The notes beneath the pieces are model-generated. The model was not told the DNA's origin. It made no database searches and saw only the letters and a program-made list of their open reading frames with translations. A stretch of DNA of 63,994 nucleotides, filler included, from an uncultured bacterium (lineage in GTDB: Bacteria; DAOPZR01): assembly GCA_964637655.1 (NCBI GenBank). It is 3 parts of 3 records of this genome, joined end to end, with 100 filler letters (N's around TTAATTAATTAA, not from the genome) between each part and the next. Parts side by side here need not be neighbours in the genome. Positions count along the whole stretch, not along the records: positions 23,409 to 46,661 come from CAZWUZ010000022.1; 2 more parts are not named here. One strand, written 5' to 3'. A program made the translations under genes and the position numbers. Positions 17,419 to 59,597 of the stretch are shown piece after piece (within the stretch, counting starts at the first letter, position 1; the number at the start of each line of letters is the position of its first letter).

Positions 17419-17437
17419 CTTCGTCCTCCGTCTATTC

Positions 17438-17522: not shown

Positions 17523-17528
17523 TATCAG

Positions 17529-17717: not shown

Positions 17718-17720
17718 GCC

Positions 17721-19841: not shown

Positions 19842-19851
19842 GGTTGCGCTC

Positions 19852-20100: not shown

Positions 20101-20112
20101 GGGCTCCCTTTC

Positions 20113-20664: not shown

Positions 20665-20672
20665 GCCCGTCC

Positions 20673-22007: not shown

Positions 22008-22093
22008 TACCTCGCTCCCGCGGACGGGCACTCAGGCGTCCGTCCGCGCCTGCCGGCGTCATGCCGGCAGGCGGCCTGCGGTGTCACGACGGC

Positions 22094-23308: not shown

Positions 23309-23408
23309 NNNNNNNNNNNNNNNNNNNNNNNNNNNNNNNNNNNNNNNNNNNNTTAATTAATTAANNNNNNNNNNNNNNNNNNNNNNNNNNNNNNNNNNNN
23401 NNNNNNNN
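23309..23408. other. Artificial contig linker (N44-TTAATTAATTAA-N44)
   Basis: N-run with all-frame stop linker. Confidence 0.97.
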
Positions 23409-25665: not shown

Positions 25666-25729
25666 ATGATACGCACGAATGACTGTTTCGTCAAGGCGCA
25701 TTGACGCTGCTGCGAAGCGGTGGTAGGAT
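25666..25729. promoter_or_regulatory. Back-to-back divergent sigma70 promoters
   Basis: Minus: TTGACG-N17-TATCAT; plus: TTGACG-N17-TAGGAT; the -35 boxes form CGTCAA-N6-TTGACG. Confidence 0.65.
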
Positions 25730-25751
25730 GGCTGTGGACGGAGGTACAGCG

Positions 25752-25940
25752 ATGGTGTCAGCGGAGGACCGGGCGGAAATCAGCGCGCAGGGCGGCGCGC
25801 GTCTGCAGGCCTGTGGCGAGGTGACAGAACTGGCGCTGACCCTGCGTCTGGCGGTGCTCCAGCGCCAGTACCCGGAACTGCCACCGGACGAAGTACGGCA
25901 GCTGCTCAATCGCGAACTGCGGGAGAAGCGGACCCCGTGA
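25752..25940 (+). CDS. Small protein, partner of downstream nucleotidyltransferase
   Basis: SD GGAGG before ATG25752; GTGA overlap with next gene; LQRQYPELPPDEV. Confidence 0.6.
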   Translation: MVSAEDRAEISAQGGARLQACGEVTELALTLRLAVLQRQYPELPPDEVRQLLNRELREKRTP

Positions 25941-26458
25941 CGGCAAACCTGCTGACGGACACGCTGGTCACGGTGGTTGCGGCGCTGGCGCGACATGATA
26001 TTCCGTACGCCCTGGCCGGCGGCCTGGCGTTCAGCGCGCTGGCCGAACCGCGGGCGACGACGGACATCGACCTTATCTGCCTGCTCGATGAGGAACATGC
26101 GCCGGCGGTATTCCGCTGTCTGCAGGAGGCGCTGCCCGGGCTTATCGTCAATCCGCAGGTGATGCGCTTTGCCCGGGCGACCATCCGGCGCGCGGTGTAT
26201 CTGGCGGGCGCACGGGAAGTGATTATCGACCTTATCACGGCGCATGACCGTGTGTTCATGGCTACGGCACTGGAACGGGGAATGACCCTGACGGTTGCCG
26301 GACAGCCGCTGCGGGTGGTGACCCCCGAGGATCTCATCGTGCTGAAAACCTGGGCGGGACGCCCGCAGGATGCGCTCGATATTGCCGCTTTGCGCGCGCG
26401 CTACGGGACGTCGCTTGACGAAGAGTATCTGTGTCGCTGGCTGGGGAGGAGCGGTTGA
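25937..26458 (+). CDS. Nucleotidyltransferase (DUF2204/AbiEii-like)
   Basis: YALAGGLA..PRATTDIDL, PEDLIVLK..AGRPQDALDI. Confidence 0.8.
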   Translation: MTANLLTDTLVTVVAALARHDIPYALAGGLAFSALAEPRATTDIDLICLLDEEHAPAVFRCLQEALPGLIVNPQVMRFARATIRRAVYLAGAREVIIDLITAHDRVFMATALERGMTLTVAGQPLRVVTPEDLIVLKTWAGRPQDALDIAALRARYGTSLDEEYLCRWLGRSG

Positions 26459-34281: not shown

Positions 34282-35265
34282 ATGAATTCTTTGCTCTATG
34301 AAGAAACGCTGAAATTTGTTGATGGACATGCTGAAAGAATATTTAGACCTTTTTTGCAACTTGCCCAAGGGCATATCGAGGATCCCAATACGGATTTTCC
34401 GATAGAACGATTTAAGAGTGAATACACCTTGTTTTTAAATAGGTATTGTGATGAAGTTTGTGTGAGTACTGCACGATACATTCGAGAAAACACTGTTGAT
34501 CCTACTATGATAAAAAGTTCAATTGCTGAAATTGAACAGGTAATTCAACAAGAAGTATTTAGAAAATATAGTTATTCTGTGCAACAACAAGTCTCGAATT
34601 TAGCGGAAATTAAAAATGAGGCGAATAACGCGGACTTAATCAAGGGTGCATTGGCTGGAGCTGTTGTTGGTAAAGTGATTACTGGCAAATCGACAGGTGC
34701 TACAGCAGGCGCATTAATTGGAGTGGTAAACGCAAGCTCAAATGCAGCTTCAAATGCAACTGATAAAAAAGCGGAAATTTGGGAAAAATCTTTTAAGGAC
34801 CAGTTCGAAAAAATGGCTGAATCGATTTTGCGATTGTATGATTTCACAATGAGTAAAATTGCTGGAAATGAGGTTGATGTGAGAATAATATCTGATTTCG
34901 ACAAAAAATATTCGGAGAGAATAAAAGAAAAAAAGAAAATCTGTGATGAAATTTTATGGGAAGTAGCAACCTTTAGGGAAAAACGTGAAAGTTCTAAAGA
35001 TTTTGATACATTCAGGGCCTTTGGTGGTATAATCGTTGATACGATTGGTTTGGTATTGATAATGTGGGGATATTTTGCGTTTATTAAGGTTATAGGACTG
35101 TATGGAAATTTTTTAGCATTACTGTTGGCCTTGCTTCCAATAGGGTTTTATCTTTACAGGTTGATTTCCAGATTAACTAAGCGTATGAAGATTAAATTTA
35201 ACAGAGGAAATTGTGGGGTTAAACCGTCCGCTAGATTGGCGGATCTAGCAAAGCGGTATAATTAA
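34282..35265 (+). CDS. AT-rich hypothetical membrane protein with glycine-zipper-like segment
   Basis: GALAGAVVG..GATAGALIG; two C-terminal TM helices; SD AGGAGG; AT-rich codons. Confidence 0.7.
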   Translation: MNSLLYEETLKFVDGHAERIFRPFLQLAQGHIEDPNTDFPIERFKSEYTLFLNRYCDEVCVSTARYIRENTVDPTMIKSSIAEIEQVIQQEVFRKYSYSVQQQVSNLAEIKNEANNADLIKGALAGAVVGKVITGKSTGATAGALIGVVNASSNAASNATDKKAEIWEKSFKDQFEKMAESILRLYDFTMSKIAGNEVDVRIISDFDKKYSERIKEKKKICDEILWEVATFREKRESSKDFDTFRAFGGIIVDTIGLVLIMWGYFAFIKVIGLYGNFLALLLALLPIGFYLYRLISRLTKRMKIKFNRGNCGVKPSARLADLAKRYN

Positions 35266-35302
35266 GTTTTATATTTATTTTTTGGACCGCGAGAAGGAAA
35301 AA

Positions 35303-36007
35303 ATGAAAGAACAGTATTTTGGTGATGTAAACGATTATCGGAAATTTGGCTTGTTGCGAATTATTTGCCAAAACAGCTGGTTACGTCCCTTAATCGTGTG
35401 GATGTTGACGGAAAATGATGATAGTAAGAACGGAAACAAACGAGGATACTTAGAAGAGGAAAATGCATGGAAACATTTTGACAGTGAACTATTTGCATAT
35501 CTGAAAGAAAAACTCGATAAAGAGCGCGCTCCGAATACTAATATCATCGAAGAATCAAGCTTATTGCCGGGAACAGGCTTTTTTCGAAATAAAATACATG
35601 ATCAAATTCATCAGAGAACACGATGGCAAAGCAGCTTGTTTATGGAGGCTGCAAAATATGAAATGGTTTTTTTTGACCCGGACAATGGAATTGAAATTAA
35701 ATCAAAACCGATAGGGAGAAAATATTCATCGAAGTACGTCTATTGGTTTGAGATTGAAGAAATATGGAAACAGAAAAAATCAATTTTGATATATCAGCAT
35801 TTTCCTAGGATCCAAAGGGATATATTTGTTCGCAAAATATCTGAAGAGTTACACCAGCATGCCTACAATTCAACTATAATGATATTTCGTACACCCCAAA
35901 CTCTTTTTTTGTTCGCGGTTCAACCAATTCACGGAAGATGGGTTGAAAGAATTAAAGATACTATTAATAGTCAATGGAAAGACCAAATCAATGCACATGT
36001 CTGTTGA
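35303..36007 (+). CDS. AT-rich hypothetical protein, possibly methyltransferase-like
   Basis: MKEQYFGDVNDYRKFGLLR; VFFDPDNG; LIYQH. Confidence 0.7.
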   Translation: MKEQYFGDVNDYRKFGLLRIICQNSWLRPLIVWMLTENDDSKNGNKRGYLEEENAWKHFDSELFAYLKEKLDKERAPNTNIIEESSLLPGTGFFRNKIHDQIHQRTRWQSSLFMEAAKYEMVFFDPDNGIEIKSKPIGRKYSSKYVYWFEIEEIWKQKKSILIYQHFPRIQRDIFVRKISEELHQHAYNSTIMIFRTPQTLFLFAVQPIHGRWVERIKDTINSQWKDQINAHVC

Positions 36008-36012
36008 AGATT

Positions 36013-36993
36013 TCACGAAGAAGTATGGTTCGATATTGATGAAGCTATGTTTGTCGTATCACTAAGGCGCGCATTCCACGCGTCGATGAGGGCGTCGATT
36101 TCCGGCAGCGAATGGTGGAAATGCACAGTGAGCAGCGGTACGGAACCGTCAGCGGGGAGCGTGCCGGTGTCGTAGAGCTGCCGCGCCAGGTCGAGGTAGC
36201 GTTGCGCGTGGGCGCGGTAGAACCGTTCGGTGCCGCCCGCCGCTGCCCATACTGCCCAACGGTCGAACAGTGCATCCTCAGTCAGGCCGCAGCGCTGCTG
36301 CAGCGCGACGGCGAAACGGTCGTGGCCCGGCCAGAGGGCAAGTTCGCGCACGGCGTCCGTGCCGCAGGTTTCCTCCAGAAAAGCGACGACTGACGCGGCA
36401 CAGCGGTAGGAAGGGAGGTCGTCGCTGCGTGCCGCGAGCATGGCGCGCACCCCGGCGGCACTGTCCGTGCGCGCGTGATGCTGTGCCGTCGCCGCGATAC
36501 GCAGGAGATTCCCCGGGGAGGCGAGGTGATTGGCCACACCCTCGTCGAACCAGTCCCAGTCATCAGCGCGATACGTCTGCGGGCGCGCCTGCGCCTGGTG
36601 CAGGTGCACGAACTCGTGTACGAGCACGGGCGCCACGTAATTCTGGATGAGGATACGGGCGGGCGGCAGTGAGAGCGCGGCGCGCTCCCCGAGACGGGTC
36701 TGCGCGCGCGCATAATCGCCGCTGCAGGCGGTGATGGTGACCGGTGGCAGCTCCTGCCGGAAAAATGCGCCGGTGTAGGTGCGGGCGATGCCGCCGAAAC
36801 GGACGAACTGCCCCGCCAGCGGCGGGGTAAGCGCGGTTTTATCGGCGCGATGGCAGTTGAGGCGAATGTCCGGCGTGTCGATAACGGTCTGCATCAGGCC
36901 GGTGCGCTGCGCGACCTGCCAGACGAGCGCGGCGAAGACAAGGGTGAGGAAGAGCAGCAGCAGAAACCGGGAGAGGGAACGCCGGCGGCTCAT
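36013..36993 (-). CDS. Membrane-anchored zinc metallopeptidase (gluzincin/MA clan)
   Basis: HEFVH ... WFDEGVA; N-terminal TM helix. Confidence 0.75.
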   Translation of the reverse strand: MSRRRSLSRFLLLLFLTLVFAALVWQVAQRTGLMQTVIDTPDIRLNCHRADKTALTPPLAGQFVRFGGIARTYTGAFFRQELPPVTITACSGDYARAQTRLGERAALSLPPARILIQNYVAPVLVHEFVHLHQAQARPQTYRADDWDWFDEGVANHLASPGNLLRIAATAQHHARTDSAAGVRAMLAARSDDLPSYRCAASVVAFLEETCGTDAVRELALWPGHDRFAVALQQRCGLTEDALFDRWAVWAAAGGTERFYRAHAQRYLDLARQLYDTGTLPADGSVPLLTVHFHHSLPEIDALIDAWNARLSDTTNIASSISNHTSS

Positions 36994-37355
36994 TCCGGCG
37001 GCAGGTGTTTGGCGATGAACTTCTCGAGCCGTGCCTTCACGTCATCACTCACGTTCAGGAACTCGATGCCGCCCGGGTACTTCCCGAGCACGGGCACCGC
37101 GCTGATCCACTTGATGATGCCGGTGAGCTTGAACGGCATGGTCGACCCGGCCAGGGTCACTTCCAGTTCGACCGGGTCATTCTCCTTGAGGATGCCGGTG
37201 AAAAAGACCTTGATGCCGCTGACGGAAATGTCGGCGACCTCGGCGGCCTGCAGCTGTCCGCCCAGCGTCCTGACGCGGTACTTGATCTGCAGCGCATACT
37301 GCAGCCGCGCGAAGCGGCGACGGTCAGGCCCGCTGTAGGAAACGGTCATCAGCAT
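36990..37355 (-). CDS. PilZ domain protein
   Basis: RRRFAR (RxxxR) and DISVSG (DxSxxG). Confidence 0.88.
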   Translation of the reverse strand: MLMTVSYSGPDRRRFARLQYALQIKYRVRTLGGQLQAAEVADISVSGIKVFFTGILKENDPVELEVTLAGSTMPFKLTGIIKWISAVPVLGKYPGGIEFLNVSDDVKARLEKFIAKHLPPE

Positions 37356-37394
37356 CCCTCCTGCGGTAATCTAACCATACTGACGGCGTTTTGT

Positions 37395-38726
37395 CTATTG
37401 TGCTTTCGCCCGCCCGCGCCCGCACAGGCGGAGGACTGCCCTGATGCTGCGGGCGAGGCGGTGAGGATAGGGCATGCGCCTGATTGCGCCGCCGGTGAGC
37501 AGGGCACAAATCCGGCGGTAGCGGTAGACGGGATGCAGATGCCGGATGTTGCTGATGGTTGCCGGCAGCGGGGAGAATTCACGGTCGCCGAAGTGCTGAT
37601 AGTACGTGTACCACGTGCCGGAACAGTACTCTTTGAGCGCACAGTCGACGCATTTCGGGGTCAGGGCCATGCCGGTCTGCTTGAGTATGACCTGTTCGCT
37701 GCCGGGGAGCGTGTGCAGTTCGACCGTGTAGCGGTAGTTGGAGGCGAACCGCCAGTACTTCCGGCGGAAGAGACAAAGGGGGAACGAAGCGAGGGTAAAC
37801 GGCACCCCGCGCTCCTGCAGCAGGTCCATCGCCGCTTCCAGCTGCGGGACCGTTTCTGACAGGGGGAGCGCCAGCTCGTCGCGATGCACCAGCGCCTCAC
37901 CGAGCAGGACCAGGGCGTTGAGGCTGACCTGTCGCGGCTGAAATGACAGGGCGAAGCGGACCAGTTCGTTAAGCTGCCGGTGGTTCTCGCGGTGCACGAC
38001 CAGCAGCACGGTGAGGTTCCGGAAACCGGCGCGCTGCAACTGCTGCAATCCGGCCACGGTTTCGCGCCAGCTGCCGGGGGCGCGGGTGAGACGGTCATGG
38101 ACCTGTTCGTCATGACTGGGGAGCGTGACGGAAATGCGGTCGATGCCGGTGGCCAGCAGCCGGCCGGTGAAAGCGGGATCGGCCAGACGGCGTGCATTGG
38201 TGAATATCTGGGTGAACAGCCCGTGCTGCCCGGCCCGGTGCAGCAGTTCATTCAGGTGCGGGTAGAGGGTCGGCTCGCCCCCCCCGAAGTTGATGGAGAG
38301 GACCTCGCGGGCATGCCGGTCGAGCAGCGGCAGCAGTGTCTGCGGGTCGGAAGTGCCCGGCGGCACTGTGTGTCTGGACAGGCAGTAGCGGCAGGCATTG
38401 TTGCAGGCCAGTGAGGGAAAACAGAAAATCCGCTGGGCAATGAAGCGTGCTGCCCGCGTGCGCCCGAAGGCGGCGGCAAAGGCGGCGTAATCGGGATAGT
38501 GTTCGTCAGCGCCCAACTTGACCGCAACGCGTCCGGTTGCGACAGTTCCCTGTTCGCGGGGACAGGGCGATGGCGCGCCGCCACGGGTGAGAAACTCCGC
38601 GAATACCTGCTCCCGGTCGCGGTAATCATCGATGAACCTGCCGCGGGCACCGTTGCAGAAGACCACCTCCTGAAAAGCGGAGAGGGTGAACAGGTCAGGA
38701 CAGGCGCGGCAGCTACGGTCGCTCAT
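37395..38726 (-). CDS. Radical SAM protein with C-terminal Cys cluster (HxsC-like layout)
   Basis: CNNACRYC, GGEPT, FTNAR, FPLC, CVDCALKEYCSG; alternative start TTG38747. Confidence 0.85.
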   Translation of the reverse strand: MSDRSCRACPDLFTLSAFQEVVFCNGARGRFIDDYRDREQVFAEFLTRGGAPSPCPREQGTVATGRVAVKLGADEHYPDYAAFAAAFGRTRAARFIAQRIFCFPSLACNNACRYCLSRHTVPPGTSDPQTLLPLLDRHAREVLSINFGGGEPTLYPHLNELLHRAGQHGLFTQIFTNARRLADPAFTGRLLATGIDRISVTLPSHDEQVHDRLTRAPGSWRETVAGLQQLQRAGFRNLTVLLVVHRENHRQLNELVRFALSFQPRQVSLNALVLLGEALVHRDELALPLSETVPQLEAAMDLLQERGVPFTLASFPLCLFRRKYWRFASNYRYTVELHTLPGSEQVILKQTGMALTPKCVDCALKEYCSGTWYTYYQHFGDREFSPLPATISNIRHLHPVYRYRRICALLTGGAIRRMPYPHRLARSIRAVLRLCGRGRAKAQ

Positions 38727-38862
38727 CGTGCTCAGGTTATAAATCAACCGCTGCCGGCGGTCAATCGGTCCGGCAGAAAGGAGCCCGCGGCGTGTAGCGG
38801 GCCGCGGGCTTGAGGGAGGGGACTGCAGCGGTGGTGGGAGGCCACCGCCATTGAGGGTGAAA

Positions 38863-39039
38863 TCAGAGTTCGACGACGATGCTGTCGAAGTGCCAGTGCC
38901 GCAGGCGCTCGAGATGCCGCTCGGTGAGCCGCTGCTGCGCGTGCATCAGGATGAGGAAGTTGCGGTAGAGCGGCTGCGCGAGTTTCATGCCTGCCTGAAC
39001 CTGGTTGAGGGGAAGTCGCATCTTCATGTCGATCACCAT
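38863..39039 (-). CDS. Unannotated 58-aa protein resembling the N-terminal accessory domain of HD-GYP phosphodiesterases
   Basis: Manual translation MVIDMKMRLPLNQVQAGMKLAQPLYRNFLILMHAQQRLTERHLERLRHWHFDSIVVEL; host-like codons; own promoter. Confidence 0.7.
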   Translation of the reverse strand: MVIDMKMRLPLNQVQAGMKLAQPLYRNFLILMHAQQRLTERHLERLRHWHFDSIVVEL

Positions 39040-39187: not shown

Positions 39188-40174
39188 ATGCGTTATATCC
39201 TTGTCCCGGATGGATTGCCCGAGGCGCTGCGCTACCGGCTGGACGCGGCGGCAGCGACCGTTGGGAATACGGGTTATTATGCCCGTCCGCTCGACCTAAC
39301 AGATACCACCGGTGCCCTGGCCGCGCTGCCGCCGCGCAGCGCCAACCTGGAAATTACCACGCGCTGCCAGTTGCGGTGTGCCCACTGCCCGCGCCCGCCG
39401 GGTGGTGAGGATATGCCGCTGTCGCGCGTGCAGGAGGCGCTGACCGTCCTGCAGGCAGCCGGTGTGCAGGAACTCGGACTGCAGCATCTCGGCGAGCCCC
39501 TGCTCCACCCCGACTTCCCCGCCATCCTCGGCGTCGCCTGCCGGCAGTTCCGGGTGACCCTGATAAGCAACGGCCTGCCGCTTGCCCCGGCGGTGAACAG
39601 CATCATCCTGGCGGCGCAGCCGCAGCGGGTGACGGTATCACTTGATGCCAGCCATCGTGCGGCGGCCGGGGCGGAAGCGGAAGAGCGCGTGCTGGCCATG
39701 GTACGGCGCCTGCGCCGCGAGCGCGACCTGCGCGGGCTCGACGGCCCGGCCGTGGCAATTCAGGCAGTGGCGGATGCGTCACTGGTGGCGGACACAGCGC
39801 GCCTGGCTGACTGGCGGGCGGCAGCCGACGCGGTGGCACTCTGTTCCCGGGTCTGGCCTGATTTGCCGGTGGCGGTGCCGGCGGACGAACCGTGCCCGGT
39901 GGCGTTCCGCCATCTCGTCGTGCGTGTCGACGGCAGGATGCATGTCTGTTGCGCTGATGCGGCCGGGGAACTGACCGTGGGCAATCTGTTCACCGAAGGG
40001 GTGGAGGCGGCGTGGCAGGGGAAACATGCCTGGCATGTGCGGCGGCGCCTGCTGGCGCGCGACTGGCCGGCGCCCTGCCGCGACTGCGTCCTGCGTTCGC
40101 CGGCAGCCCGCCGCGCTTTTGCCGGTCTCGTCGGGCGATTACCGGGAACGGTGGCGGAGGATGCCGTCCTGTGA
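39188..40174 (+). CDS. Radical SAM protein with short SPASM/twitch domain
   Basis: CQLRCAHC, LGEPLLHP, ISNG; CPVAF..DGRMHVCCAD..GNL..CRDC. Confidence 0.88.
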   Translation: MRYILVPDGLPEALRYRLDAAAATVGNTGYYARPLDLTDTTGALAALPPRSANLEITTRCQLRCAHCPRPPGGEDMPLSRVQEALTVLQAAGVQELGLQHLGEPLLHPDFPAILGVACRQFRVTLISNGLPLAPAVNSIILAAQPQRVTVSLDASHRAAAGAEAEERVLAMVRRLRRERDLRGLDGPAVAIQAVADASLVADTARLADWRAAADAVALCSRVWPDLPVAVPADEPCPVAFRHLVVRVDGRMHVCCADAAGELTVGNLFTEGVEAAWQGKHAWHVRRRLLARDWPAPCRDCVLRSPAARRAFAGLVGRLPGTVAEDAVL

Positions 40175-41178
40175 TTTCCCCTCCCCGGGCACCGCTGGTC
40201 GATATGTTCCTGCGGCATTATTTTCAGCATGGACGGGTCTTCGAGGCGATGCTGCTCGTTACCCATCGCTGTCCGCTGCGCTGCCGGCATTGCTACATCC
40301 GCCATGCCCCTCGCCGGGAACTCGCTCGCAACCGTTGGTTGCGAGCGCTTGATGAACTTGCGGCGCTGGGGGTGCTGATCGCCACGTTTTCCGGCGGTGA
40401 ACCGCTGCTCCGTCGCGACCTGCCGGCATTGCTGCGCCATGCCGACGCGCGCGGGTTTGCCCTCAACCTTTTCACCAGCGGGTGGGGACTGACGGCGCGG
40501 CGGGTGGCAATGTTCCGCGATCTGCGCTGGCGTGAAATCGCCGTCTCGGTCTATGCGTCTGATCCCCGTACCCATGATGCGGTGACCGGCGTGCGCGGTT
40601 CGTGGACGCAGGCGGTGGCGGCGCTTGCAGCCTTGCGCGCGGCGGGAATCCCGGTCGCGGTCAACAGCGTGGTGCTGCGCGGCATGCGGCACTGCGCCCC
40701 CGGAGTGCGTGCCTGGACCCGGCGTGAAGGGTATGTCCTGCATCAGAGCGGAATGGTGATACCCGCGTTCGACGGCGATCGTGGCCCGCTGCAGCAGCGG
40801 CTGGGGACCCTGCCGGCGGCATTGCGCTCCCGGCCGCAGCGGACGCGCGCGCCGCGCTGGCGCCGCGGCTGCGGCTGTGGCGAGGGGACGGTACTGATCG
40901 ACGCCTACGGTGATGTCTGGCCCTGCACCTATTTTCCGTTGCCGCTGGGTAACGTCCGGTATGCTCCCCTCCGCGAAGTGTGGAACGGTTCGCCGCTCCT
41001 GCCGGTGATACGCCGCGGTCTTGACCGCGCCGCCTCGCGCCTTGCCTGTCGCGCCTGCAGCGCGAATCGTTCCTGCCGCCACTGCTACGGGCAGGCGTTC
41101 ACCGAGGAGGGGAGCGTGTACCGTGTGCCGCGGGTCAGTTGCCGGTTTCTCGGCTTGACGCCCCGCAACGATTCGTGA
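40171..41178 (+). CDS. Radical SAM/SPASM peptide maturase (PqqE/AlbA-like)
   Basis: CPLRCRHC, SGGEPLLR, HDAVTGVRGSW; CGCG..GDVWPC..CRACSANRSCRHC..C; GTGA overlap with upstream rSAM. Confidence 0.9.
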   Translation: MISPPRAPLVDMFLRHYFQHGRVFEAMLLVTHRCPLRCRHCYIRHAPRRELARNRWLRALDELAALGVLIATFSGGEPLLRRDLPALLRHADARGFALNLFTSGWGLTARRVAMFRDLRWREIAVSVYASDPRTHDAVTGVRGSWTQAVAALAALRAAGIPVAVNSVVLRGMRHCAPGVRAWTRREGYVLHQSGMVIPAFDGDRGPLQQRLGTLPAALRSRPQRTRAPRWRRGCGCGEGTVLIDAYGDVWPCTYFPLPLGNVRYAPLREVWNGSPLLPVIRRGLDRAASRLACRACSANRSCRHCYGQAFTEEGSVYRVPRVSCRFLGLTPRNDS

Positions 41179-41184
41179 TACACT
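41155..41184 (+). promoter_or_regulatory. Internal promoter giving a probable leaderless precursor mRNA
   Basis: TTGACG-N18-TACACT with TGn, ending 6 nt before ATG41191; no SD. Confidence 0.55.
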
Positions 41185-41190
41185 GCCCGC

Positions 41191-41373
41191 ATGGAAACGA
41201 AACGGGTTGCGCAGGATACGGCAACGCCAGCGCCACGCCCCTACGAACCGCCGCGACTCACCCGCTATCAGCGTCTGCAGGAAATGACGCGCGGGGATTC
41301 ACCCACCGGCAACCTCGGTGCGGTCGAGATTTGTTCGATTGCCGGCCACTGCGAGTCACAGCCACTCACCTGA
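41191..41373 (+). CDS. RiPP precursor peptide with lasso-type leader
   Basis: YEPPRL..LQEMTR|GDSPTGNLGAVEICSIAGHCESQPLT; 12 nt after rSAM/SPASM stop. Confidence 0.8.
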   Translation: METKRVAQDTATPAPRPYEPPRLTRYQRLQEMTRGDSPTGNLGAVEICSIAGHCESQPLT

Positions 41374-41443: not shown

Positions 41444-42190
41444 ATGCTGCTGCGCCGACTGGTCGTTGCGGTCATGCTCGCGGCTTTTGTCGGCTGCGCC
41501 GCCGCGCCGCGCCGCGTCACCAATTTCTTCATCGATGAAGACCTTGCCCGCCTGCGGCGCAATACCGTGGCGGTGCTCCCCTTCGACAACCTGACGCAGT
41601 TTATCGGCGCTGATTTTCTCGTTACCGACGAGTTCAACCTGCAGCTCGGGCGCACGGGATACTTCGACCTGGTCGAACGTGTCCGCGTTGCCGAACTGTA
41701 TCAGGAACAGGACCTCGATCCGCACCGCATCGATCAGGCCACCGCGGTGCAGGTGGGGAAGATGCTCGGGGCGCACGCGGTCATCCTCGGCACCGTCACC
41801 CGCTACGAGCCGAGCGAGATCATCCCGGTGGTGCCCTCCGATGCCTACCCGATCATCGTCCCCGTGCCGGTCAACATGGACGGGCGCACGGCGACGCGGG
41901 TGGCGGTGGCCAGCGCGATCGTCACGCTGATTGCCATGGCGGCGTCGCGGAAATACCAGGATGCGGCGGTGGGGATCACCGCGCGGCTCGTCGGGACGGA
42001 GGCGGGGCAGCAGTACTGGCAGGCGCGCGAAACCTTCATCGGTGACGATCCGGGCGTCGCCGCGCTGGCGGAGACCGCCTACGACAAAAAGCGGGTCAAC
42101 AAGGACGTGGAGTATCTCGCGCGGCTGCTCTGCACGGAGCTCTGCCGCACCTTCCGCGACGGCAACGCGACGGTCGGTGGCGACGCGTAG
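41444..42190 (+). CDS. Lipoprotein, CsgG/FlgO/DUF799-like
   Basis: Lipobox FVGC; VAVLPFDN, FDLVER, VGKMLGAHAVILGTVTRY. Confidence 0.75.
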   Translation: MLLRRLVVAVMLAAFVGCAAAPRRVTNFFIDEDLARLRRNTVAVLPFDNLTQFIGADFLVTDEFNLQLGRTGYFDLVERVRVAELYQEQDLDPHRIDQATAVQVGKMLGAHAVILGTVTRYEPSEIIPVVPSDAYPIIVPVPVNMDGRTATRVAVASAIVTLIAMAASRKYQDAAVGITARLVGTEAGQQYWQARETFIGDDPGVAALAETAYDKKRVNKDVEYLARLLCTELCRTFRDGNATVGGDA

Positions 42191-42838: not shown

Positions 42839-42962
42839 GGGGCACCTCCTGTGACGGTGTTCATCATACGTCGCCCGCCCGCAGGTGTCAATGCCCCGGT
42901 GCTTGCATCGCGCGGCGGATAATGTATACTGCGCGCAGCACACCGCGAAACGGAGCCCGGCG

Positions 42963-44072
42963 ATGGATTACCCGCTCGACCATATCGACAAACTGCTCTC
43001 CCCGATGCTGCAGTACAACGCCTCGGACATTATCCTCAAGGTGTCCTCCAAGCCGACCTACCGCATCAACAAGGCACTGGTCGCGCTCGAGGAAGTGCCG
43101 CCGCTGACCGAGGAGGCGATGCAACTCTTCTGCAGCCAGATCATGCCGGCGGAGGACTTCCTCAAGCTGCAGCACGGCAGTGAAGTTGACATCGCCTACA
43201 ACATTCCCGGGGTGACCCGCTACCGGGTCAATGCCTTCAAGCAGCGCGGTGTTCTCGAAATCGTCGCGCGCTGCATCCAGAACAAGATTCACTCCGTGCA
43301 GGAACTCAACCTCCCCGCGGTGCTGCTCAACGTTACGCAGGTGCATCGCGGCATGGTGCTGATGACCGGGACGACGGGGAGCGGCAAGTCGACGACGCTG
43401 GCGGCGCTTATCGACCACATCAATGAGCACTACACGCGTCACATCGTCACCATCGAGGACCCCATCGAGTTCGTCTACCAGGACAAGAAGTCGATCATCA
43501 GCCAGCGCGAGGTGGGGATCGACACCGAGGACTTCAAGATGGCGCTCAAGCACATGATGCGCCAGAACCCCGACATCATCCTCATCGGCGAGATGCGCGA
43601 CAAGGAGACGGTTGATGCCGCCATCGCCGCGGCGGAGACGGGGCACATGGTCTTCTCCACGCTGCATACCGCCGACGCGGCCAAGACCATCGACCGCATC
43701 ATGGAGTTCTACCCCAAGTCGGAGCAGGACTCGCTGCGCGCGCAGCTGGCGCAGTACCTCGTCGCCAGCATCTCGCAGCGTCTCGTGCCGCGCGCTGACG
43801 GGCAGGGCATGGTCCCCGCGGTCGAGGTGATGTTCTCCAGCCCGGTCATCCGCAAACTTATCGTCGAGAACCGCATCGTCAAAATCCGCTCCGCCATCCA
43901 CCAGGGGAAGCAGGAGGGGATGCAGACCTTCGACCAGGCGCTGGTCGAACTGCACCAGAAGGGGTGGGTCAGTTTCGAGGATGCGGCGGAGCGCTGCAGC
44001 AAACCCGCCTCGTTCAAGAGCTACTGCGAGGGGCACTTTCCCGATATCGACAGCGGCATCCTTTCCGGCTGA
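42963..44072 (+). CDS. pilT: Type IV pilus retraction ATPase PilT/PilU family
   Basis: RYRVNAF, GTTGSGKST, TIEDPIE, QREVG, IGEMRD, TGHMVFSTLH, GMQTFDQAL; VIRKLIVE in place of AIRNLIRE. Confidence 0.85.
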   Translation: MDYPLDHIDKLLSPMLQYNASDIILKVSSKPTYRINKALVALEEVPPLTEEAMQLFCSQIMPAEDFLKLQHGSEVDIAYNIPGVTRYRVNAFKQRGVLEIVARCIQNKIHSVQELNLPAVLLNVTQVHRGMVLMTGTTGSGKSTTLAALIDHINEHYTRHIVTIEDPIEFVYQDKKSIISQREVGIDTEDFKMALKHMMRQNPDIILIGEMRDKETVDAAIAAAETGHMVFSTLHTADAAKTIDRIMEFYPKSEQDSLRAQLAQYLVASISQRLVPRADGQGMVPAVEVMFSSPVIRKLIVENRIVKIRSAIHQGKQEGMQTFDQALVELHQKGWVSFEDAAERCSKPASFKSYCEGHFPDIDSGILSG

Positions 44073-45424
44073 TGCCGCGCCGCCGGCCGCCGCGCCCTGC
44101 GCCGGCGGCGAAGAAGGACCGGCGCGGCCGCGGCGTGCCGGTCTACCGCGAGACCGGCGACGGGGGGCGGCAGTTCGGACGACCCCTCGACGTGCTGCTT
44201 ATCTTCCCGCAACCGTATGCTGTCGGCATGAGCAATCTCGGCTTCCTCTTTGTCTACCGCCGCCTGCGCGAATTTCCCGAGGTCAATGTCGAACGCGCGT
44301 TTCTCGACGACGACGGCACCCTGTCGCCGGCGGTGGAATCGGGGCGTGACTGGCGGCAGTTCCCGGTACTGGCGCTCTCCTGCAGTTATGAACTCGATGT
44401 GCTGCGCTTCGCGCAGCGGGCGCGCACGGCGGGCCTGGTCCTTGACGCCGGGGTGCGGGCGGAGCGTCCGCTGCTGCTGGTCGGCGGGACCGGGGTACAG
44501 GTCAACCCGCACCTGTGGGCAGGCGTGGCGGATGTGATCTGTACCGGGCGCTGGGAGGATGATGAGGCGGCGCTGCGCAACCGGCTGCGCGCGCTGCTCG
44601 GCCTGCCGCCCGCGTCTGTCCCGCTGCCGCCCGCCCCGCTGGTGCATAACACGCTCTTCGCGGCGGACGCGGTCTTTGCCGACGCGCTGCTGCTCGAACT
44701 GGAACGCGGCTGCCGCTACCGCTGCCCGTTCTGCTGGTACGCGCATGCGACCGCGCGGGCGGCGGCACCCGCGGCGGCGGACCTGCTGGCCGTGGTTGAC
44801 CGCTTCCCGACCCCGGCGGTCGGCCTGGTCTCTGCCTGCCTGGCTGATTACCCGCAGCTGACGGAACTGCTGACCGGGTTGCGGGAGCGGCAGCGGCACA
44901 TCGGGTTCGCCTCGCTTCGCTTCGACCGGCTGAACGACAGCGACCTTGCCCTGCTCGCGGCGTGCGGGATGCGGACCTTGACCATCGCGCCGGAAACCGG
45001 GGCACCGGCGCTGAAGCAGGCGGTGGGCAAGCGGCAGACGACCGCGGCACTGGTGCAGCGGCTGCAGGTGGCGGCGGCAGCCGGTATCCGGAACTTCCGC
45101 TTTTACTATCTGGTCGGGTTGCCCGGGGAAGGGGAGGAGGAGTTGCGGCAGACCGCGGCGGAAATTGCGGCGCTGGTCCGGGCGGTTCGCACGGTGGATG
45201 CCGCGTGCCGCTGCGAGGCAACCATCAACCCGCTGGTCCCCAAGCCTGGCACCCCCTGGGCGGCCGCAGCGCTGCTCAGCGCCGCGGCCATGCGGCACGC
45301 TCGCCACCTGCTGACCGGCTGCCTGCAGGGAACCGGGGTACAACTGTCATGGGGGAGCTGGCGCGAAGCGCAGCAGCAGCACCGGCTGGCCCACAGCCGG
45401 GTTCCCCTGACCGCCGGCCTGTAA
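44072..45424 (+). CDS. Radical SAM protein with B12-binding-like N-terminal region
   Basis: YAVGMSNLG, ERGCRYRCPFC, TIAPETG, YLVGLPGE, PKPGTP. Confidence 0.8.
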   Translation: MPRRRPPRPAPAAKKDRRGRGVPVYRETGDGGRQFGRPLDVLLIFPQPYAVGMSNLGFLFVYRRLREFPEVNVERAFLDDDGTLSPAVESGRDWRQFPVLALSCSYELDVLRFAQRARTAGLVLDAGVRAERPLLLVGGTGVQVNPHLWAGVADVICTGRWEDDEAALRNRLRALLGLPPASVPLPPAPLVHNTLFAADAVFADALLLELERGCRYRCPFCWYAHATARAAAPAAADLLAVVDRFPTPAVGLVSACLADYPQLTELLTGLRERQRHIGFASLRFDRLNDSDLALLAACGMRTLTIAPETGAPALKQAVGKRQTTAALVQRLQVAAAAGIRNFRFYYLVGLPGEGEEELRQTAAEIAALVRAVRTVDAACRCEATINPLVPKPGTPWAAAALLSAAAMRHARHLLTGCLQGTGVQLSWGSWREAQQQHRLAHSRVPLTAGL

Positions 45425-46661: not shown

Positions 46662-46761
46662 NNNNNNNNNNNNNNNNNNNNNNNNNNNNNNNNNNNNNNN
46701 NNNNNTTAATTAATTAANNNNNNNNNNNNNNNNNNNNNNNNNNNNNNNNNNNNNNNNNNNN
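46662..46761. other. Artificial contig linker (N44-TTAATTAATTAA-N44)
   Basis: N-run with all-frame stop linker. Confidence 0.97.
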
Positions 46762-47439: not shown

Positions 47440-48311
47440 ATGGGGACAGTCCCCATTTTCTGTGGTAAAATAGTGGTGACTATGAGCAAGCTGGGAGGCA
47501 AAAGTGGGAAGAAAAGCGCGTGTCGTTGCCGTTGGCTATCCGCATCACACCACCCAACGAGGGAATTACCGTCAGCAGACCTTTTTTTCCAATAAGGATT
47601 ACCGAAGATTTGTTGAATGGATGAGCGAAAGCGCCGCCTCCCACCGCCTGCTCGTGCTCGGCTACTGTCTGATGCCAAATCACACCCATTGTATTGTTGT
47701 GCCGCTCGAACATGACGCGATGGCGCGCACCTTTGCTGATATTCATTCACGCCATGGACAACTGGTCAACCTGCGTAGCGAACGGCACGGGCATTTCTGG
47801 CAGGACCGGTATTTTTCCTGCGTGCTTGACGAGCCTCATCTGCTTATGGCCGCGCGTTATATCGAGCGCAACCCGGTGCGAGCAGGATTAGTCACTCAGC
47901 CGGAAGAATGGTCATGGTCGAGTGCCAGGGCACACTGCGGTCGGGAAGAATCGCCGATGCCGCTGATGGAACTCTTCAAGTACATTGACAGCGATCCGGA
48001 ACGCTGGCACGATTTCATCAACGAACCCGATTGTAAGAAATTCGCTAAGCGTCTCACTGAACATACCTTGCACGGCTACGCGCTGGGTTCAGCCGTCTTT
48101 GTTGAGCGTTTGGAAATGGAGTTGGGCTGCTCTCTGCGACCTGGCAAACGCGGCCGACCCGCCGGCAACAAGGACAATGCTCAATAATTGACACCGGTTT
48201 TTCTGTTATCACACACGCCGTCATAATCGCGTTCTGTTCCCACTTTGGCACTCTACACGACATCTATCGTGCGTTATTCGTATCACGGAAAATGGGGACT
48301 GTCCCCATTTA
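47437..48311 (+). mobile_element. RAYT element bounded by 24-bp inverted palindromic repeats
   Basis: TAAATGGGGACAGTCCCCATTTTC (47437-47460) and its exact reverse complement (48288-48311); lower-GC interior. Confidence 0.85.
47504..48187 (+). CDS. REP-associated tyrosine transposase (Y1 HUH, RAYT)
   Basis: HHTTQRGN, YCLMPNHTH, FWQDRY, YIERNPVRAG, WSWSS. Confidence 0.92.
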   Translation: MGRKARVVAVGYPHHTTQRGNYRQQTFFSNKDYRRFVEWMSESAASHRLLVLGYCLMPNHTHCIVVPLEHDAMARTFADIHSRHGQLVNLRSERHGHFWQDRYFSCVLDEPHLLMAARYIERNPVRAGLVTQPEEWSWSSARAHCGREESPMPLMELFKYIDSDPERWHDFINEPDCKKFAKRLTEHTLHGYALGSAVFVERLEMELGCSLRPGKRGRPAGNKDNAQ

Positions 48312-48686
48312 TTTTTTGCGGAGGATGAAGGCGCGGCCGGCGTATTCGAAGGCGCCGAGCGCGTGAGCCGGCGCGTGCCACGTCCCGATGGCCTGCCCGG
48401 CAGCATGCGCGACACATTTCGCCCCTTCCGTCTTCGCCACTTTGGCCGCCGCATGCGCCGCCAGCGACAGCGTGCGCACCTCGCGCATGCCGAGTTTCCG
48501 CTTTCCTTCCGCCCATGCCCGCAGGGCCGCAATTGCCTGCTGCGGGCGCCGGTCGGTCGGCCGCTCACGGGTAAATGCCGGCAGTTCCTGCGCCACGCGC
48601 AGTGCCGCCTTCAGTCCGAGCAGTTTGTGATAGTAGCTGTCGCGCCATTCGCTGCTGTTTTTCGGCTTGGGTGGTAGTGGACTCAT
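48309..48686 (-). CDS. Imm5-like putative immunity protein, copy 1
   Basis: DRRPQQAI..AWAEG..SLAAHAAA..AHAAGQAIGTWH..HALGA..YA. Confidence 0.65.
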   Translation of the reverse strand: MSPLPPKPKNSSEWRDSYYHKLLGLKAALRVAQELPAFTRERPTDRRPQQAIAALRAWAEGKRKLGMREVRTLSLAAHAAAKVAKTEGAKCVAHAAGQAIGTWHAPAHALGAFEYAGRAFILRKK

Positions 48687-53268: not shown

Positions 53269-56046
53269 TCAGAAGGTCGAGCCAAGCCCGAGATAGAGCC
53301 GCACCCCGTCGCGGTCGTCGAGTCCGCGCGCGGCCCCGAGTTCCACATGGTACGGCATCGAATAATACATCGCCGCCTTGAGAATGAGCGACCCGCCATA
53401 ACTGCTGTGCATGTCGCGCCACCAGAACGGACCGTCCCACGCGCGCCCGCAGTCGCCGAAGAGGCGCAGGTAGAGCCCGTCGAAATAGAGGAAACTGGTC
53501 AGGTGCGCGATGTCGTACCAGAGCGGCAGCGTGTACTCGACGCTGCCGACGAGCAGTTTCGAGCCGCGGTAGAGGTTGCTCGCGTACCCGCGCAGCCCGT
53601 TGCTACCCCCGAGGCGGAAGATGCCCTGCGCCGGCCCCTGCCCGAACCCGCGTCCCGCGCGCAGGCGCAGCGCCAGCGCCTGATGCTGCCAGCGCGTCGG
53701 CAGGAAGTACGCCCCCTCGGCGGTCCACGCCTCGTAGTCGAAGTCGCCGTCGAGCGCCTTGACCTGATGCGCGTATTCAACCGCCACCTCGTAGCCGGAA
53801 GCGATACCGATGTCGTAGTCACTGGTCGGGATCAGGTCGCGGTAGCGCGCCCCGAGCGCATACGAGGTGAACTTGCCCTCGTAGGGGCGCGTGCTGCGCC
53901 CGTCGAAATACTCCAGCGCCTCGTTGGCGCTCACCTTCTCCCAGCGCCCGCCCAGCGACAGCGACAGGCGGTTGGTGACCGGGAAAAGCGCGCTCAGGTC
54001 GAGCCCGCGCCAGCGCTCGTGGTAGTCATCGAATCCCGTCCCGCTCTTTTCGGGCACGAGGTCGGCAAAGGCGCGGCGGGTGGCGAACCCCGCCAGCGTG
54101 ATAGTCGGGAACCAGACCCGGTTGATGTACTGGAAGCCGCCGAGCGGACTGTGCCCGGTGAAGTTGTAGTTCGCCTGCAGGTTGACGATGTGGCGGGCCA
54201 GCACGTCGTTGGCCGATGCCGCCAGCCCGGCCGCCAGTTGCGTCCCGTCGTACGACAGCCACGGCACGCGGTAGGGTGAGCGCCAGACATTCGTGTAGGC
54301 GCGCGCCACCCCGGTCTCCGGGGCCACCTCGTCGCCGGGACGCGGGTCGGGCGCCGGCGGCGGCGTGTACGGCTCCGCTGCATCCAGTGCAACGCTGACC
54401 ACATCGAACCCGCGTGACGTGTACTGCGTGGCCGCAAGGGTCTGCGCGTCGAGGCGGGCCGGTTCGAAGAGCCCCGTGCTGGTCCGCGTCACGCGCCTGA
54501 CCTGCTCTTCGTCCCAGATGAACAGGTCGTAGATATTCTCGTAGTCGGCGGCAAAGGCGATGGTGCGGTTGTCCAGCCAGCAGCCGGTCGCCTCGTTCCA
54601 CGCGGTGGTACAGGGAAGCGGCAGGTTGCTGCCGTCGCGCAGGTCGTAGACGCAGAGGTCGCGCTGACCCGCGGTGAAGCGCCCGTAGAGCAGGCGGTGC
54701 CCGTCCGGCGAGACCTGCGGCGCGAAGAGCTGCTCCTCGAGCGCGGCGGCGTAGAGTGTGGTAATGCTGCCGTCAGCGAGGTCAACCAGCACCAGTTCCG
54801 CGTGCCCGCGTTCGGTACGTACCGCGGCAGCATGCGTACCGCCCGGCAGCAGTGCCGGTTGCGTCACGCGTGCGCCACGCGTGATGCGACGCTCACCTTC
54901 CGCCTCCGTCCAGGCAAACAGGTCGTTGTAATTACTCCCGTGACGGTCCTCTTCCGTGCGCGTGTAGAGCAGCAGTCCCCCGTCAGTACTCATGCTGATG
55001 CCGGGATTGATGTCATCCGCCATCACGCGGGCGGCGGCGGCAGGTTGCGTGCGGTCCTGCCGGTAGAGCGCCAGCCGCTGGAAATCATGGCTGCCGTTCG
55101 AGGTATAGGCAAGATAGCGCCCGTCCGTGCTCACCGCGGGATTCTGGTCGCTCCACCCCGCGTCGGCCAGCAGCACTGGCACCCCCAGCGGCACGCGGCT
55201 GTTCCAGTCAAGGGTCTGCGCGCGCAGCTGCGCCACCCACGAATCGTAGAGTTCCTCTCCGGTCTGCCCGACCGCCGCCTTGAGCGCCGCGTCAAACTCC
55301 TCGAAGCTCTCCCCCTTGGCGTGCACGATGTGCGCCAGCGCGGTATCGCCGTGCATGGCAGCAACGTGGCGCACCAGCGCATAGCCCTGACTGTAGGCGC
55401 GCTCGTACTCGAAGGCGTTCTTGCCGAAGACGCACATCTTGGCATACGGCAGGAGCGCGTCATCGAGCACCGCCGCGCGCAGGATCATCGCCCGCTGCGC
55501 GTCGTAGCGCTCGGTACCCCGCTCCGCCTTGTACTGCGCCAGCCCCTCGGTGAACCAGACGGGACACATCAGGTTGGGCATGGTCAGCAGCGAGCCGACC
55601 AGGTCGCGCGAGCCGAGCAGGTCCTCGCCCGCGGTGCGCATGTGCAGCATATGCGTCAGTTCGTGGTAGATGACATTCTGCAGCCAGCGGTGCGTGCCGC
55701 GCAGGTTGAAGTCCATCGGGGTCAGCCAGACGGTGATGCTGCCGTCCGCCGGGTCGGTCAGCCCGTTGCCGATGTCGTCGCTGTCGCGCAACACGAGGTC
55801 GTAGGTTTCGTCGAGGGTGAAGTTGAGGTCGGCCCCGACACGCGCGTAGGCGAGTTCCGCCACCGCCGCCGCGTAGCGCGCCGCCTCCTCGAGGTGGCGG
55901 TCGTAATGGATGCGGAAATGCGCCGTGCGCAGCGTCTGCCACTCGAGTTCGCTGTGCGTGAACAGTGTGTGCACCGTCACCGCCGCAGCGGGCGCCGCCG
56001 CCAGCAGCGCCGCCAGGGCGAGCGCGACGGCGGCGGTCCGGGTCAC
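53269..56046 (-). CDS. Outer-membrane protein: gluzincin peptidase + TolB/PD40 propeller + Omp85-type barrel
   Basis: Signal peptide; [18 protein letters not shown] repeats; FRLGG..LRGY; C-terminal Phe. Confidence 0.8.
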
Positions 56047-58582: not shown

Positions 58583-59597
58583 CTATCTGGCCGGGGGAGT
58601 GGTGCTCTTTTCCTTGAGCATCTCGCCGATGGCGGCAACCGACGACAGCAGGCCCGCGGCCTCGTAGGGGATGAACATCTTGGTCGCCTGCCCGTTGGCC
58701 ATCTGCCCCATCGTCTCGAGGTACTTGATGGTGATGAGGTCGGTGGTCGGGCGCCCGTCGTGGATGGCCTTGTAGACCGTCTGAATGGCCTCTGCTTCAC
58801 CCGCGGCCACAGTGAGACGGCGGTACTTCTCGGCGTCGGCAACGGTGCGGGTCGCCTGCGCCTCGCCCTCGGCGCGGCGGACATTGGCTTCCTTGATCCC
58901 CTCGGCCTGCAGAATGGCGGCACCCTTCGACCCCTCGGCCTCGAGGATCATCGCGCGGCGGTCGCGCTCCGCCTTCATCTGGCGGTGCATCGCCTCGGTC
59001 ACGTCGCCGGGCGGCTCGATGCGCTGCAGTTCGACCCGGGTCGCCTTGGCGCCCCACTTGTCGGTCGCCTCGTCCAGCACGTCGCGCAGCCGGGCGTTNN
59101 NNNNNNNNACGCCCGACCTTGACTCCCCACTTGTCGGTGGCGGTGTCGAGGATGGTGCGCAATTTCGTGTTGATGACTTCGCGCGAGGTAAGCGACTCGT
59201 CAAGCGCCATGTCACCGATGACGTTGCGCAGGTTGGTCTGCGCCAGCTTGGTCGAGGCGAGGTAGAAATTGGCGACATTGTACGTGACCTTGACCGGGTC
59301 GGTCACCTCGTAGTAGACGACCGCGTCGACTTCGACGGCGACATTGTCCTTGGTGATGACCGCCTGCGGGGGCACGTCAACCACCTGCTCGCGCATGTCG
59401 ACCTTGATGATGCGCTCGAAGAACGGGATGACGATGACCAGCCCGCTGTCGACCGTGCGCTGGTACTTGCCCAGGCGCTCGATCAGCCCCTTCTGCCACG
59501 GGCGGACGATGGTGATGGAGTTCCACGCGACGATGAAGATAAAAACGGCGGCGACGATCAGTACGGGGATGGAGAGGGCAATCAGGGCTTCGGGCAT
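58583..59597 (-). CDS. SPFH/Band 7 (QmcA-like) protein, interrupted by N gap
   Basis: [35 protein letters not shown]; frame changes across 59099-59108. Confidence 0.85.

Follow-up and report, generated by a model that had tools for sequence, protein, structure and literature searches.

A cysteine-bearing peptide with a lasso-type leader beside twitch and SPASM radical SAM enzymes: a candidate operon for a modified ribosomal peptide

Why would a leader sequence of the lasso-peptide type stand next to a pair of radical S-adenosylmethionine (SAM) enzymes? The question is raised by three consecutive plus-strand genes in a 63,994-nucleotide (nt) stretch of DNA from an uncultured bacterium (assembly GCA_964637655.1), referred to here as the window and along the whole of which all positions are counted. 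Within the part spanning positions 23,409–46,661, two radical SAM genes, rSAM1 and rSAM2, are followed by a gene for a 60-residue, precursor-like peptide. An initial annotation had proposed a new ribosomally made peptide that is modified after translation (a RiPP), in which a lasso-type leader is paired with radical SAM chemistry on a non-lasso core. Following up that proposal computationally, we favor, with moderate confidence, the reading that the locus is a small operon for a radical SAM-modified RiPP of a rare, undescribed family, whose product would probably be crosslinked through cysteine.

The peptide family and its leader

The rSAM1 gene (39188..40174) runs from an ATG at 39188 to a TGA at 40174 and encodes 328 residues. 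The reading frame of rSAM2 (40171..41178) is open from 40012, and its start was placed at GTG 40171, giving 335 residues, because P0009, the database copy of the window protein, has that length; the start then overlaps the rSAM1 stop in the sequence GTGA. A second candidate start, ATG 40204, lies 29 nt past the rSAM1 stop, and 8–11 residues precede the common FLRHY motif in the orthologues P0010–P0012. The peptide gene (41191..41373, ATG to TGA) begins 12 nt past the end of rSAM2, whose stop lies at 41178, with coordinates and sequence as first annotated. A bare open reading frame (ORF) of this size is weak evidence of a gene, because 119 ORFs of at least 40 residues occur in 14 kb of this DNA, which is 66% GC.

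Judged by its homologues, the peptide ORF is a real gene family. A word-indexed search returned P0001 (60 residues, 64% identical), and a HMMER pass with a two-sequence peptide profile over 1.84 billion representative proteins (E ≤ 0.001) gave five matches: two further family members, P0004 (61 residues, from a contig of 2,116 nt) and P0007 (60 residues, from one of 4,704 nt); the lasso-leader proteins P0005 and P0006; and P0008, a repetitive protein of 1,123 residues (E = 1e-4) that was dropped as a low-complexity match. The three homologues come from independent assemblies and, taken as a group, show 38–62% identity; the window peptide itself matches no Pfam or NCBIfam family. Counting those of the window, the known members so far are four peptide sequences and five of the rSAM2 type, every one taken from an environmental assembly.

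Alignment of the four peptides reveals a sharply uneven distribution of conservation. Residues R16, Y18, P21, L23, R25, Y26, Q27, L29, T33, R34, G35, S37, P38, C48, C54 and P58 are invariant, and the segment covering residues 16–40 (41236..41310, plus strand), which reads R-P-Y-E-P-P-R-L-x-R-Y-Q-R-L-Q-E-M-T-R-G-[DE]-S-P-T-G, is identical at 15–23 of 25 positions in all six pairs, compared with 1–6 of 15–17 for residues 1–15 and 4–9 of 20–23 for residues 41–60. The variable tail nevertheless retains Cys48-x5-Cys54 (41332..41352, plus strand) in every member as candidate modification sites, with an Asp or Glu one or two residues before Cys48 and the invariant Pro58 near the end. A conserved middle, variable ends and fixed modifiable residues are the pattern of a RiPP precursor.

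Counted from Gly35, Tyr18 falls at −17, Pro21 at −14, Leu23 at −12 and Thr33 at −2, exactly as the initial annotation had it, and the similarity to lasso peptides extends beyond this spacing. After the family's own members, the peptide profile ranks P0005 (E = 1e-8) and P0006 (E = 1e-5) next. Each passes the NCBIfam model NF033521 (lasso_leader_L3, cut-off 19 bits), P0005 with 84 bits and P0006 with 27.6, and P0006 looks like an ordinary precursor of a lasso peptide, its core having Glu at position 8. Since the profile finds both proteins and BLASTP aligns the window peptide to P0006 with 18 of 38 residues identical (47%), the stretch preceding the motif included, the leader is on these alignments homologous to lasso leaders and shows more than motif resemblance: the conserved 25-residue segment shares descent with the Y-x-x-P-x-L ... 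T-x-G leaders of lasso peptides. The lasso kinship first proposed has therefore held up, although the Y/WxxP element is not specific to lasso peptides and is read by PqqD-type RiPP recognition elements (RREs) in several other systems, compared below. P0005 is itself an odd protein of 199 residues, in which four tandem lasso-type leader copies (the four stretches of its 84-bit NF033521 match) alternate with stretches that resemble the endosialidase chaperone (Peptidase_S74), one after every leader.

The kinship ends at the core. Lasso precursors carry Gly, Ala, Ser or Cys at core position 1 and Asp or Glu at position 7, 8 or 9. With Gly35 as core position 1, the window peptide has N, L and G at positions 7–9, as annotated, and the other members have HGA, MGT and WSI, so that an acidic residue is absent from these positions in all four; the first one past position 2 comes at position 11 or 12. 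Gln occupies the place where lasso leaders have Gly after YxxPxL. The match to a lasso-leader model that might have been expected did not materialize: none of the four peptides matches NF033521 even at E ≤ 10, and none matches Pfam. Pfam scans covered about 59 ORFs across 1–59 kb of the window, three ORFs at 59.6–64 kb lying outside, and among the scanned ORFs there is no Asn-synthase-like cyclase, transglutaminase-like B2 peptidase or PqqD/RRE, in agreement with the lack of a cyclase and peptidase noted at the outset. By its residues the family is not a lasso family.

The radical SAM pair and its linkage to the peptide

Both enzymes pass the Pfam Radical_SAM and SPASM models (37.6 and 40.1 bits for rSAM1, 78.1 and 35.6 bits for rSAM2), and both have an intact CxxxCxxC motif. 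Beyond C60/C64/C67, rSAM1 has only C236-x12-G-x4-C254(C255) and C297-x2-C300, all kept in its homologue P0003, and its C-terminal domain is half a SPASM, of twitch-like type. By contrast, rSAM2 combines C23/C27/C30 with eight C-terminal cysteines, kept in the window protein and three full-length orthologues, and carries a full SPASM. The GTGA overlap, the Pfam domains and the two cysteine sets all bear out the original description of coupled twitch-type and full-SPASM genes.

The closest solved sequences to rSAM2 belong to the peptide-modifying enzymes PqqE (E = 6e-20) and SkfB (E = 3e-12), a relationship that speaks for a peptide substrate. For rSAM1, an AlphaFold2 model from a 2-row alignment was unusable (predicted local distance difference test, pLDDT, 38), whereas a 36-row alignment gave a model with pLDDT 76.9, in which the N-terminal 40 residues stay below 50 and form one helix. 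The top Foldseek match of this model is the twitch enzyme BtrN, followed by DesII, SkfB, SuiB and CteB, with the epimerase EpeE and anSME also among the matches; the predicted resemblance to BtrN, SkfB, SuiB and CteB likewise favors a RiPP-type role. An Atlas search with rSAM1 led to generic radical SAM/SPASM clusters only. No named maturase family (StsB, AlbA, SkfB, ScmE/F and others) was reached above its NCBIfam cut-off: the best rSAM1 matches fall far short, and rSAM2 scores 127.4 bits against 400 for GeoRSP (no PqqD-family partner ORF was found), 115.3 against 381.35 for PqqE and, for the maturase of mycofactocin, 76 against 265. The best scores with the sactisynthase models are 94.7 against 625 (StsB), 47.4 against 850 (AlbA) and 45.1 against 300 (SkfB). 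When rSAM1 is compared with P0003, its 53-residue N-terminal extension is the best-conserved portion of the protein (45 of 53 residues identical versus 129 of 182 in the core).

Do the peptide and the enzymes travel together? Searches returned four rSAM2 orthologues, P0010 (69% identical), P0011 (51%, on a contig of 4,320 nt), P0012 (51%, 21,332 nt) and P0013 (50%, 1,670 nt), the next sequences being 39% identical or lower; for rSAM1, only P0003 (72%) and the window's own protein pass E ≤ 1e-5 among 8,000 scored candidates. For the peptide P0001, for P0003 (rSAM1) and for P0010 (rSAM2) alike, the source is one Logan contig with a length of 8,917 nt, and, to judge from this equal size, the three almost certainly lie together on a single contig. 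In a relative of about 92% identity (run X6), one contig spans the 3′ half of rSAM2, the peptide gene as far as 41357 and, downstream, the first part of a lipoprotein gene, in the same order as here, with the final peptide codons and the spacer swapped for diverged sequence of equal length; this relative is close kin and not independent support at the level of the family.

More distant relatives tell a different story. A scan of genome contigs with rSAM1 gave one locus (28% identity) and a scan of metagenome contigs with the rSAM1 alignment 14 loci (25–38%), and beside these 15 distant loci there is no similar peptide. When the pattern Y..P.L...T.[GASC] was run in six frames over the 15 loci and the window, it matched six times: once at the peptide itself, twice across a stop codon (in locus L014 and on the minus strand of the window) and three times at sequences unlike the peptide (L010, L011 and L012). 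We also searched 401 sampled genomes from the phylum of locus L001, the unpublished genome G153 included, with the rSAM2 alignment. Matches at E ≤ 1e-40 occurred in 133 of them, and the best are 44–51% identical to the protein P0014 but only 29–36% to rSAM2. No family peptide lies within 1.5 kb of those matches (best E = 0.27); P0014 was rejected as an rSAM2 orthologue on both counts, belonging to a different family, and no rSAM2 orthologue was found in the 401 genomes. Viral contigs scanned with the peptide alignment and plasmids searched by tblastn with rSAM1 gave no match. The link of the peptide with the radical SAM enzymes is thus seen again on the distant 8,917-nt contig, going by the equal sizes, and in the close relative.

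The missing recognition element, a proposed mechanism and its rivals

Several observations weigh against a RiPP operon of this composition. A leader with Y/WxxP would as a rule be served by an RRE of the PqqD type, and the element that the lasso-type leader led one to expect was not found among the scanned ORFs: PF05402 (PqqD/RRE) has no match there. The same scans, and the vicinity of the three genes, yielded no transporter or classical RiPP peptidase. The single rSAM1 orthologue means that the enzyme pair may not be conserved family-wide, and the peptide stands beside both enzymes at just one distant locus, by the equal-size argument, and in one near relative. The GC content at third codon positions (GC3) of the peptide gene is 0.66, compared with 0.75–0.91 in its neighbors, and no Shine-Dalgarno motif is seen 5′ of its ATG. 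Finally, peptide conservation reaches residue 40 (G-[DE]-S-P-[TP]-[GQ]), beyond the presumed cleavage site; the core residues Cys14, His19 and Cys20 (C48, H53 and C54) were placed correctly in the initial annotation, but cleavage at Gly35 and a core of 26 residues therefore remain assumptions.

Because the peptide gene lacks a Shine-Dalgarno motif, a leaderless transcript is conceivable. A consensus scan picked out, as a pattern match only, a promoter-like site TTGACG-18-TACACT with TG before the −10 (41155..41184, plus strand), which sits within the 3′ end of rSAM2 and stops 7 nt short of the peptide ATG; three such sites occur in 7 kb, 0.7 being expected. An additional, possibly leaderless, peptide transcript from this site is possible. 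A search of sequencing runs for the locus gave no RNA run among those listed, and an Rfam scan of 36–46 kb gave no match.

Could an RRE be hidden in one of the proteins? At 325–336 residues, the rSAM2 orthologues are too short to contain a fused one. Pfam searches at E ≤ 10 gave no match for the rSAM1 extension, for the 110-residue extension of a third radical SAM protein nearby (rSAM3) or for a 58-residue ORF between the two, and in a weak test the same three sequences showed no similarity to the PqqD-bearing radical SAM proteins P0065 and P0089. A precedent for doing without an RRE is DarE, which, in the accessible portion of its description, binds its leader without one and has an N-terminal extension of about 60 residues that is proposed to hold the leader (PMC10705402). 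With no RRE found nearby, either the enzymes would read the leader directly, most plausibly through the 53-residue extension of rSAM1, or a PqqD-type RRE from another part of the genome would do so.

We propose the following model for the favored RiPP operon, which would comprise rSAM1, rSAM2, the peptide gene and probably the lipoprotein gene on the plus strand. The conserved segment of the peptide would bind the twitch and SPASM enzymes, which would direct 5′-deoxyadenosyl radical chemistry at the tail; the two would act in turn or as a complex, possibly one like the TrnC/TrnD pair of thuricin CD, and the GTGA overlap suggests that they are equally dosed. Most probably the product would be crosslinked by one or two thioethers formed from cysteine, as in sactionines or ranthionines, with Cys48 and Cys54 donating to carbons close by; a different radical chemistry is possible. 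The invariant G-[DE]-S-P could either contribute to recognition or supply acceptor residues. As guesses, the leader might be removed by a nearby HExxH protein, and the product might be exported by way of the CsgG-like lipoprotein, which could alternatively be an immunity component.

A more specific version of this model, in which a lasso-derived leader is recognized without any RRE by a heteromeric twitch/SPASM pair through the rSAM1 extension and undescribed crosslinks are installed on Cys-x5-Cys, is an attractive but doubtful proposition. If it were true, it would establish a RiPP class of its own and show a natural transfer of a leader between unrelated maturation machineries. Should the favored reading itself be right, the locus would be a compact three-gene system in which a lasso-type recognition sequence is used by radical SAM enzymes without the usual RRE adaptor and a twitch and a SPASM enzyme act on one short substrate. 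It would also be a natural case of a leader passing between RiPP classes, complementing the linear polyphosphorylated peptides (LPPs) and the sactipeptide precursor StsA, both of which retain an RRE, and is a candidate for a new peptide natural product.

What if the peptide is a RiPP precursor of another chemistry? Epimerization, C–C or C–O crosslinking or cysteine oxidation, with the cysteine pair serving as a disulfide or as metal ligands, strikes us as unlikely, though it is the best of the alternatives: the Foldseek matches of rSAM1 include EpeE, the Lys–Trp crosslinker SuiB and anSME, and no scan or search separates these chemistries from one another. The preference for thioethers comes from sacti- and ranthipeptides, where invariant cysteines beside SPASM or twitch radical SAM enzymes most often mean thioethers, and is a prior and not a test.

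A further alternative is that the peptide gives rise to a small cofactor or signal, as the precursors of pyrroloquinoline quinone (PQQ) and mycofactocin do, and not to a crosslinked peptide, with rSAM2 in the role of PqqE or MftC. In its favor, no solved sequence is closer to rSAM2 than PqqE, which is also a top NCBIfam match (115 bits), neither enzyme has a fused RRE, the available text of PMC12710340 describes Y/WxxP in the PqqA/PqqD system too, and the locus lies among housekeeping genes. We nonetheless judge it improbable: the PqqE and mycofactocin maturase scores are far below their cut-offs, and among the scanned ORFs there is no gene resembling PqqB, PqqC or PqqD, or MftB, MftD or MftE. 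PqqA has a Glu...Tyr pair and MftA ends in Val-Tyr, both of which are absent here, the invariant residues of the tail being two cysteines and a proline, and a tail that varies among members would be unusual in a cofactor precursor.

Alternatively, the small ORF could encode a conserved small protein with some other, for instance regulatory, role, while the radical SAM enzymes mature the lipoprotein, another protein or a cofactor. Radical SAM/SPASM enzymes do mature proteins, with protein thioether crosslinks described in 2026 in the accessible part of PMC13692751, and both the lack of an RRE and the retention of the lipoprotein gene downstream in the relative would fit. Against this, the peptide has the conservation pattern of a RiPP precursor and a leader homologous to known RiPP leaders, and its gene begins only 12 nt past rSAM2, so that we give this explanation little credence. 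Least probable of all is an unusual lasso precursor whose B1, B2 and C enzymes lie elsewhere in the genome, with the radical SAM enzymes tailoring it or unrelated to it, since the homology to lasso_leader_L3, Thr at −2, Gly at +1 and an Asp or Glu at core position 11 or 12 in all four members are set against the lack of an acidic residue at positions 7–9, the failure at NF033521, the lack of cyclase, B2 peptidase and PqqD among the scanned ORFs, the position of the peptide by rSAM2 in the relative and the same-size contig that unites it with both enzyme orthologues at a distant locus.

Neighboring genes and comparison with known systems

The three genes are surrounded by housekeeping genes, and their nearer neighbors are of uncertain relevance. 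Downstream, 70 nt past the peptide gene and on the same strand, a gene for a 248-residue lipoprotein (41444..42190) with the lipobox FVGC is preceded by the ribosome-binding-site-like GGAGGGAG; residues 60–122 match Pfam CsgG (40.7 bits), and whether a protein with this partial CsgG/LpoB-like similarity belongs to the peptide system is uncertain. A fold analysis of the spacer between the peptide and lipoprotein genes gave no structure (z = 0.26). Upstream, a group of minus-strand genes with GC3 of 0.79–0.87 (36013–39039) can be regarded as candidate members of the system only. Transcribed divergently from rSAM1, it comprises the 58-residue, high-GC3 ORF (38863–39039); the HxsC-like rSAM3 (37395–38747), which matches Pfam Radical_SAM without SPASM and has a cysteine-containing N-terminal extension of no known family; a Pfam PilZ protein gene downstream of it (36990–37355); and a 326-residue protein (36013–36993). 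Although HxsC-like, rSAM3 scores only 101 bits against a cut-off of 267.9, and the peptide has no His-Xaa-Ser repeats, whereas a His-Xaa-Ser system has HxsB and HxsC together with a repeat peptide. The 326-residue protein is a candidate peptidase, with an N-terminal membrane anchor, an HEFVH motif of the HExxH type, a BSP peptidase match at E = 0.019 and a weak Atlas link to BSP/Peptidase_MA clusters at 0.93.

Other features of the window are recorded here in their own right. A low-GC island (34282–36007; 38% versus about 66%), flanked by the genes for pyruvate phosphate dikinase and the HExxH protein, appears horizontally acquired; its plus-strand ORFs, of 327 residues (weak glycine-zipper matches) and 241 residues, belong to no Pfam or PADLOC family. 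At 42885–45424 (plus strand) lies a B12-type radical SAM gene, TIGR03960-like with 94 bits (cut-off 462); its longest ORF begins within a PilT-like ATPase gene and is followed by an ORF that looks PilM-like by eye; four radical SAM genes consequently fall within 8 kb. A 79-residue ORF followed by an AbiEii-like nucleotidyltransferase (25701–26458, plus strand; Pfam E = 2e-6) is a probable type IV toxin-antitoxin pair, and at 47504–48686 an ORF resembling, by eye, an IS200/RAYT-type transposase adjoins an Imm5-like immunity protein (Pfam E = 1.6e-23). On the minus strand, an unusual 925-residue fusion (53269–56046) joins Peptidase_MA/M9-like, PD40 and Omp85 domains, and a block at 15943–22031 with a tandem BMC shell protein, an RnfC/Nuo51-like Fe-S flavoprotein, RpiB and a DeoC-aldolase/flavoprotein fusion resembles a bacterial microcompartment locus. 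Runs of N occur at 23309–23408, 46662–46761 and 59099–59108, one of them in the region of the PilM-like ORF.

How does the candidate operon compare with systems already described? With lasso peptides it shares Tyr at −17, Pro at −14, Leu at −12, Thr at −2, Gly at +1 and a significant leader homology, but it differs in the core, in the Gln for Gly exchange, in failing NF033521 and in that no B1, B2 or C protein was found in the window. With the PqqA/PqqD/PqqE system it has in common that rSAM2 is nearest to PqqE among solved proteins and that neither enzyme contains a fused RRE, whereas no PqqD, PqqB or PqqC was found here, rSAM2 reaches 115 bits where the cut-off is 381, and the tail of the peptide does not resemble PqqA.

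Architectural parallels are the sacti- and ranthipeptides (SkfB, CteB, and TrnC/TrnD of thuricin CD), in which a radical SAM enzyme with an auxiliary cluster likewise stands beside a short cysteine-bearing precursor; the top structural matches of rSAM1 include SkfB and CteB, and rSAM2 matches SkfB in sequence. The present locus differs in that no fused or discrete RRE was found, such an element being usual but not universal there, and in having only two cysteines, near the C terminus, together with a lasso-type leader. Thuricin CD is described, in the accessible part of PMC12093266, as the work of two cooperating radical SAM enzymes, TrnC and TrnD. The StsABC sactipeptides of Actinomycetota provide a further parallel in combining a W/YxxP leader with a radical SAM/SPASM maturase: according to the available text of PMC12710340, the WxxP motif of the precursor StsA is bound by the discrete RRE StsC, and a W/Y/LxxP motif is common to lasso, PQQ and StsC RREs. 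A discrete PqqD-like element such as StsC was not found here, and rSAM2 lies under the StsB cut-off.

The LPPs of Bacillota are, in the portion of PMC13381572 that we could draw on, a non-lasso RiPP family with a lasso-type [Y/W]xxP leader (YxxP) and RREs derived from lasso RREs, and because their leaders share this motif, lasso-type leaders can be seen to be re-used by other pathways. That system is described with a discrete RRE, a kinase, a nucleoside triphosphate transferase and an SpI-like peptidase and no radical SAM enzyme, whereas the present one has two radical SAM enzymes and no RRE. Darobactin, finally, is by its partly available description made by a radical SAM/SPASM pathway without an RRE, with an N-terminal extension of comparable size; its precursor DarA is unrelated in sequence, DarE forms ether and C–C links on aromatic residues, and the conserved residues here are cysteines. 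In the rSAM1 model the extension has pLDDT below 50.

Since Y/WxxP leaders serve PQQ, StsA and LPP biosynthesis, as far as the cited texts go, the pairing of a lasso-type leader with radical SAM enzymes, which recurs on the distant contig and in the close relative, is less unprecedented than the initial annotation implied. A full-text literature search, whose scope did not extend to supplementary lists of mined clusters, found no description of such a family. Radical SAM/SPASM enzymes with cysteine-bearing precursors are already known, and so is a lasso-type leader in the non-lasso pathways of StsA and LPP; what appears to be new is the pairing of a lasso-homologous leader with twitch and SPASM enzymes, along with the lack of a detectable RRE and the Cys-x5-Cys tail.

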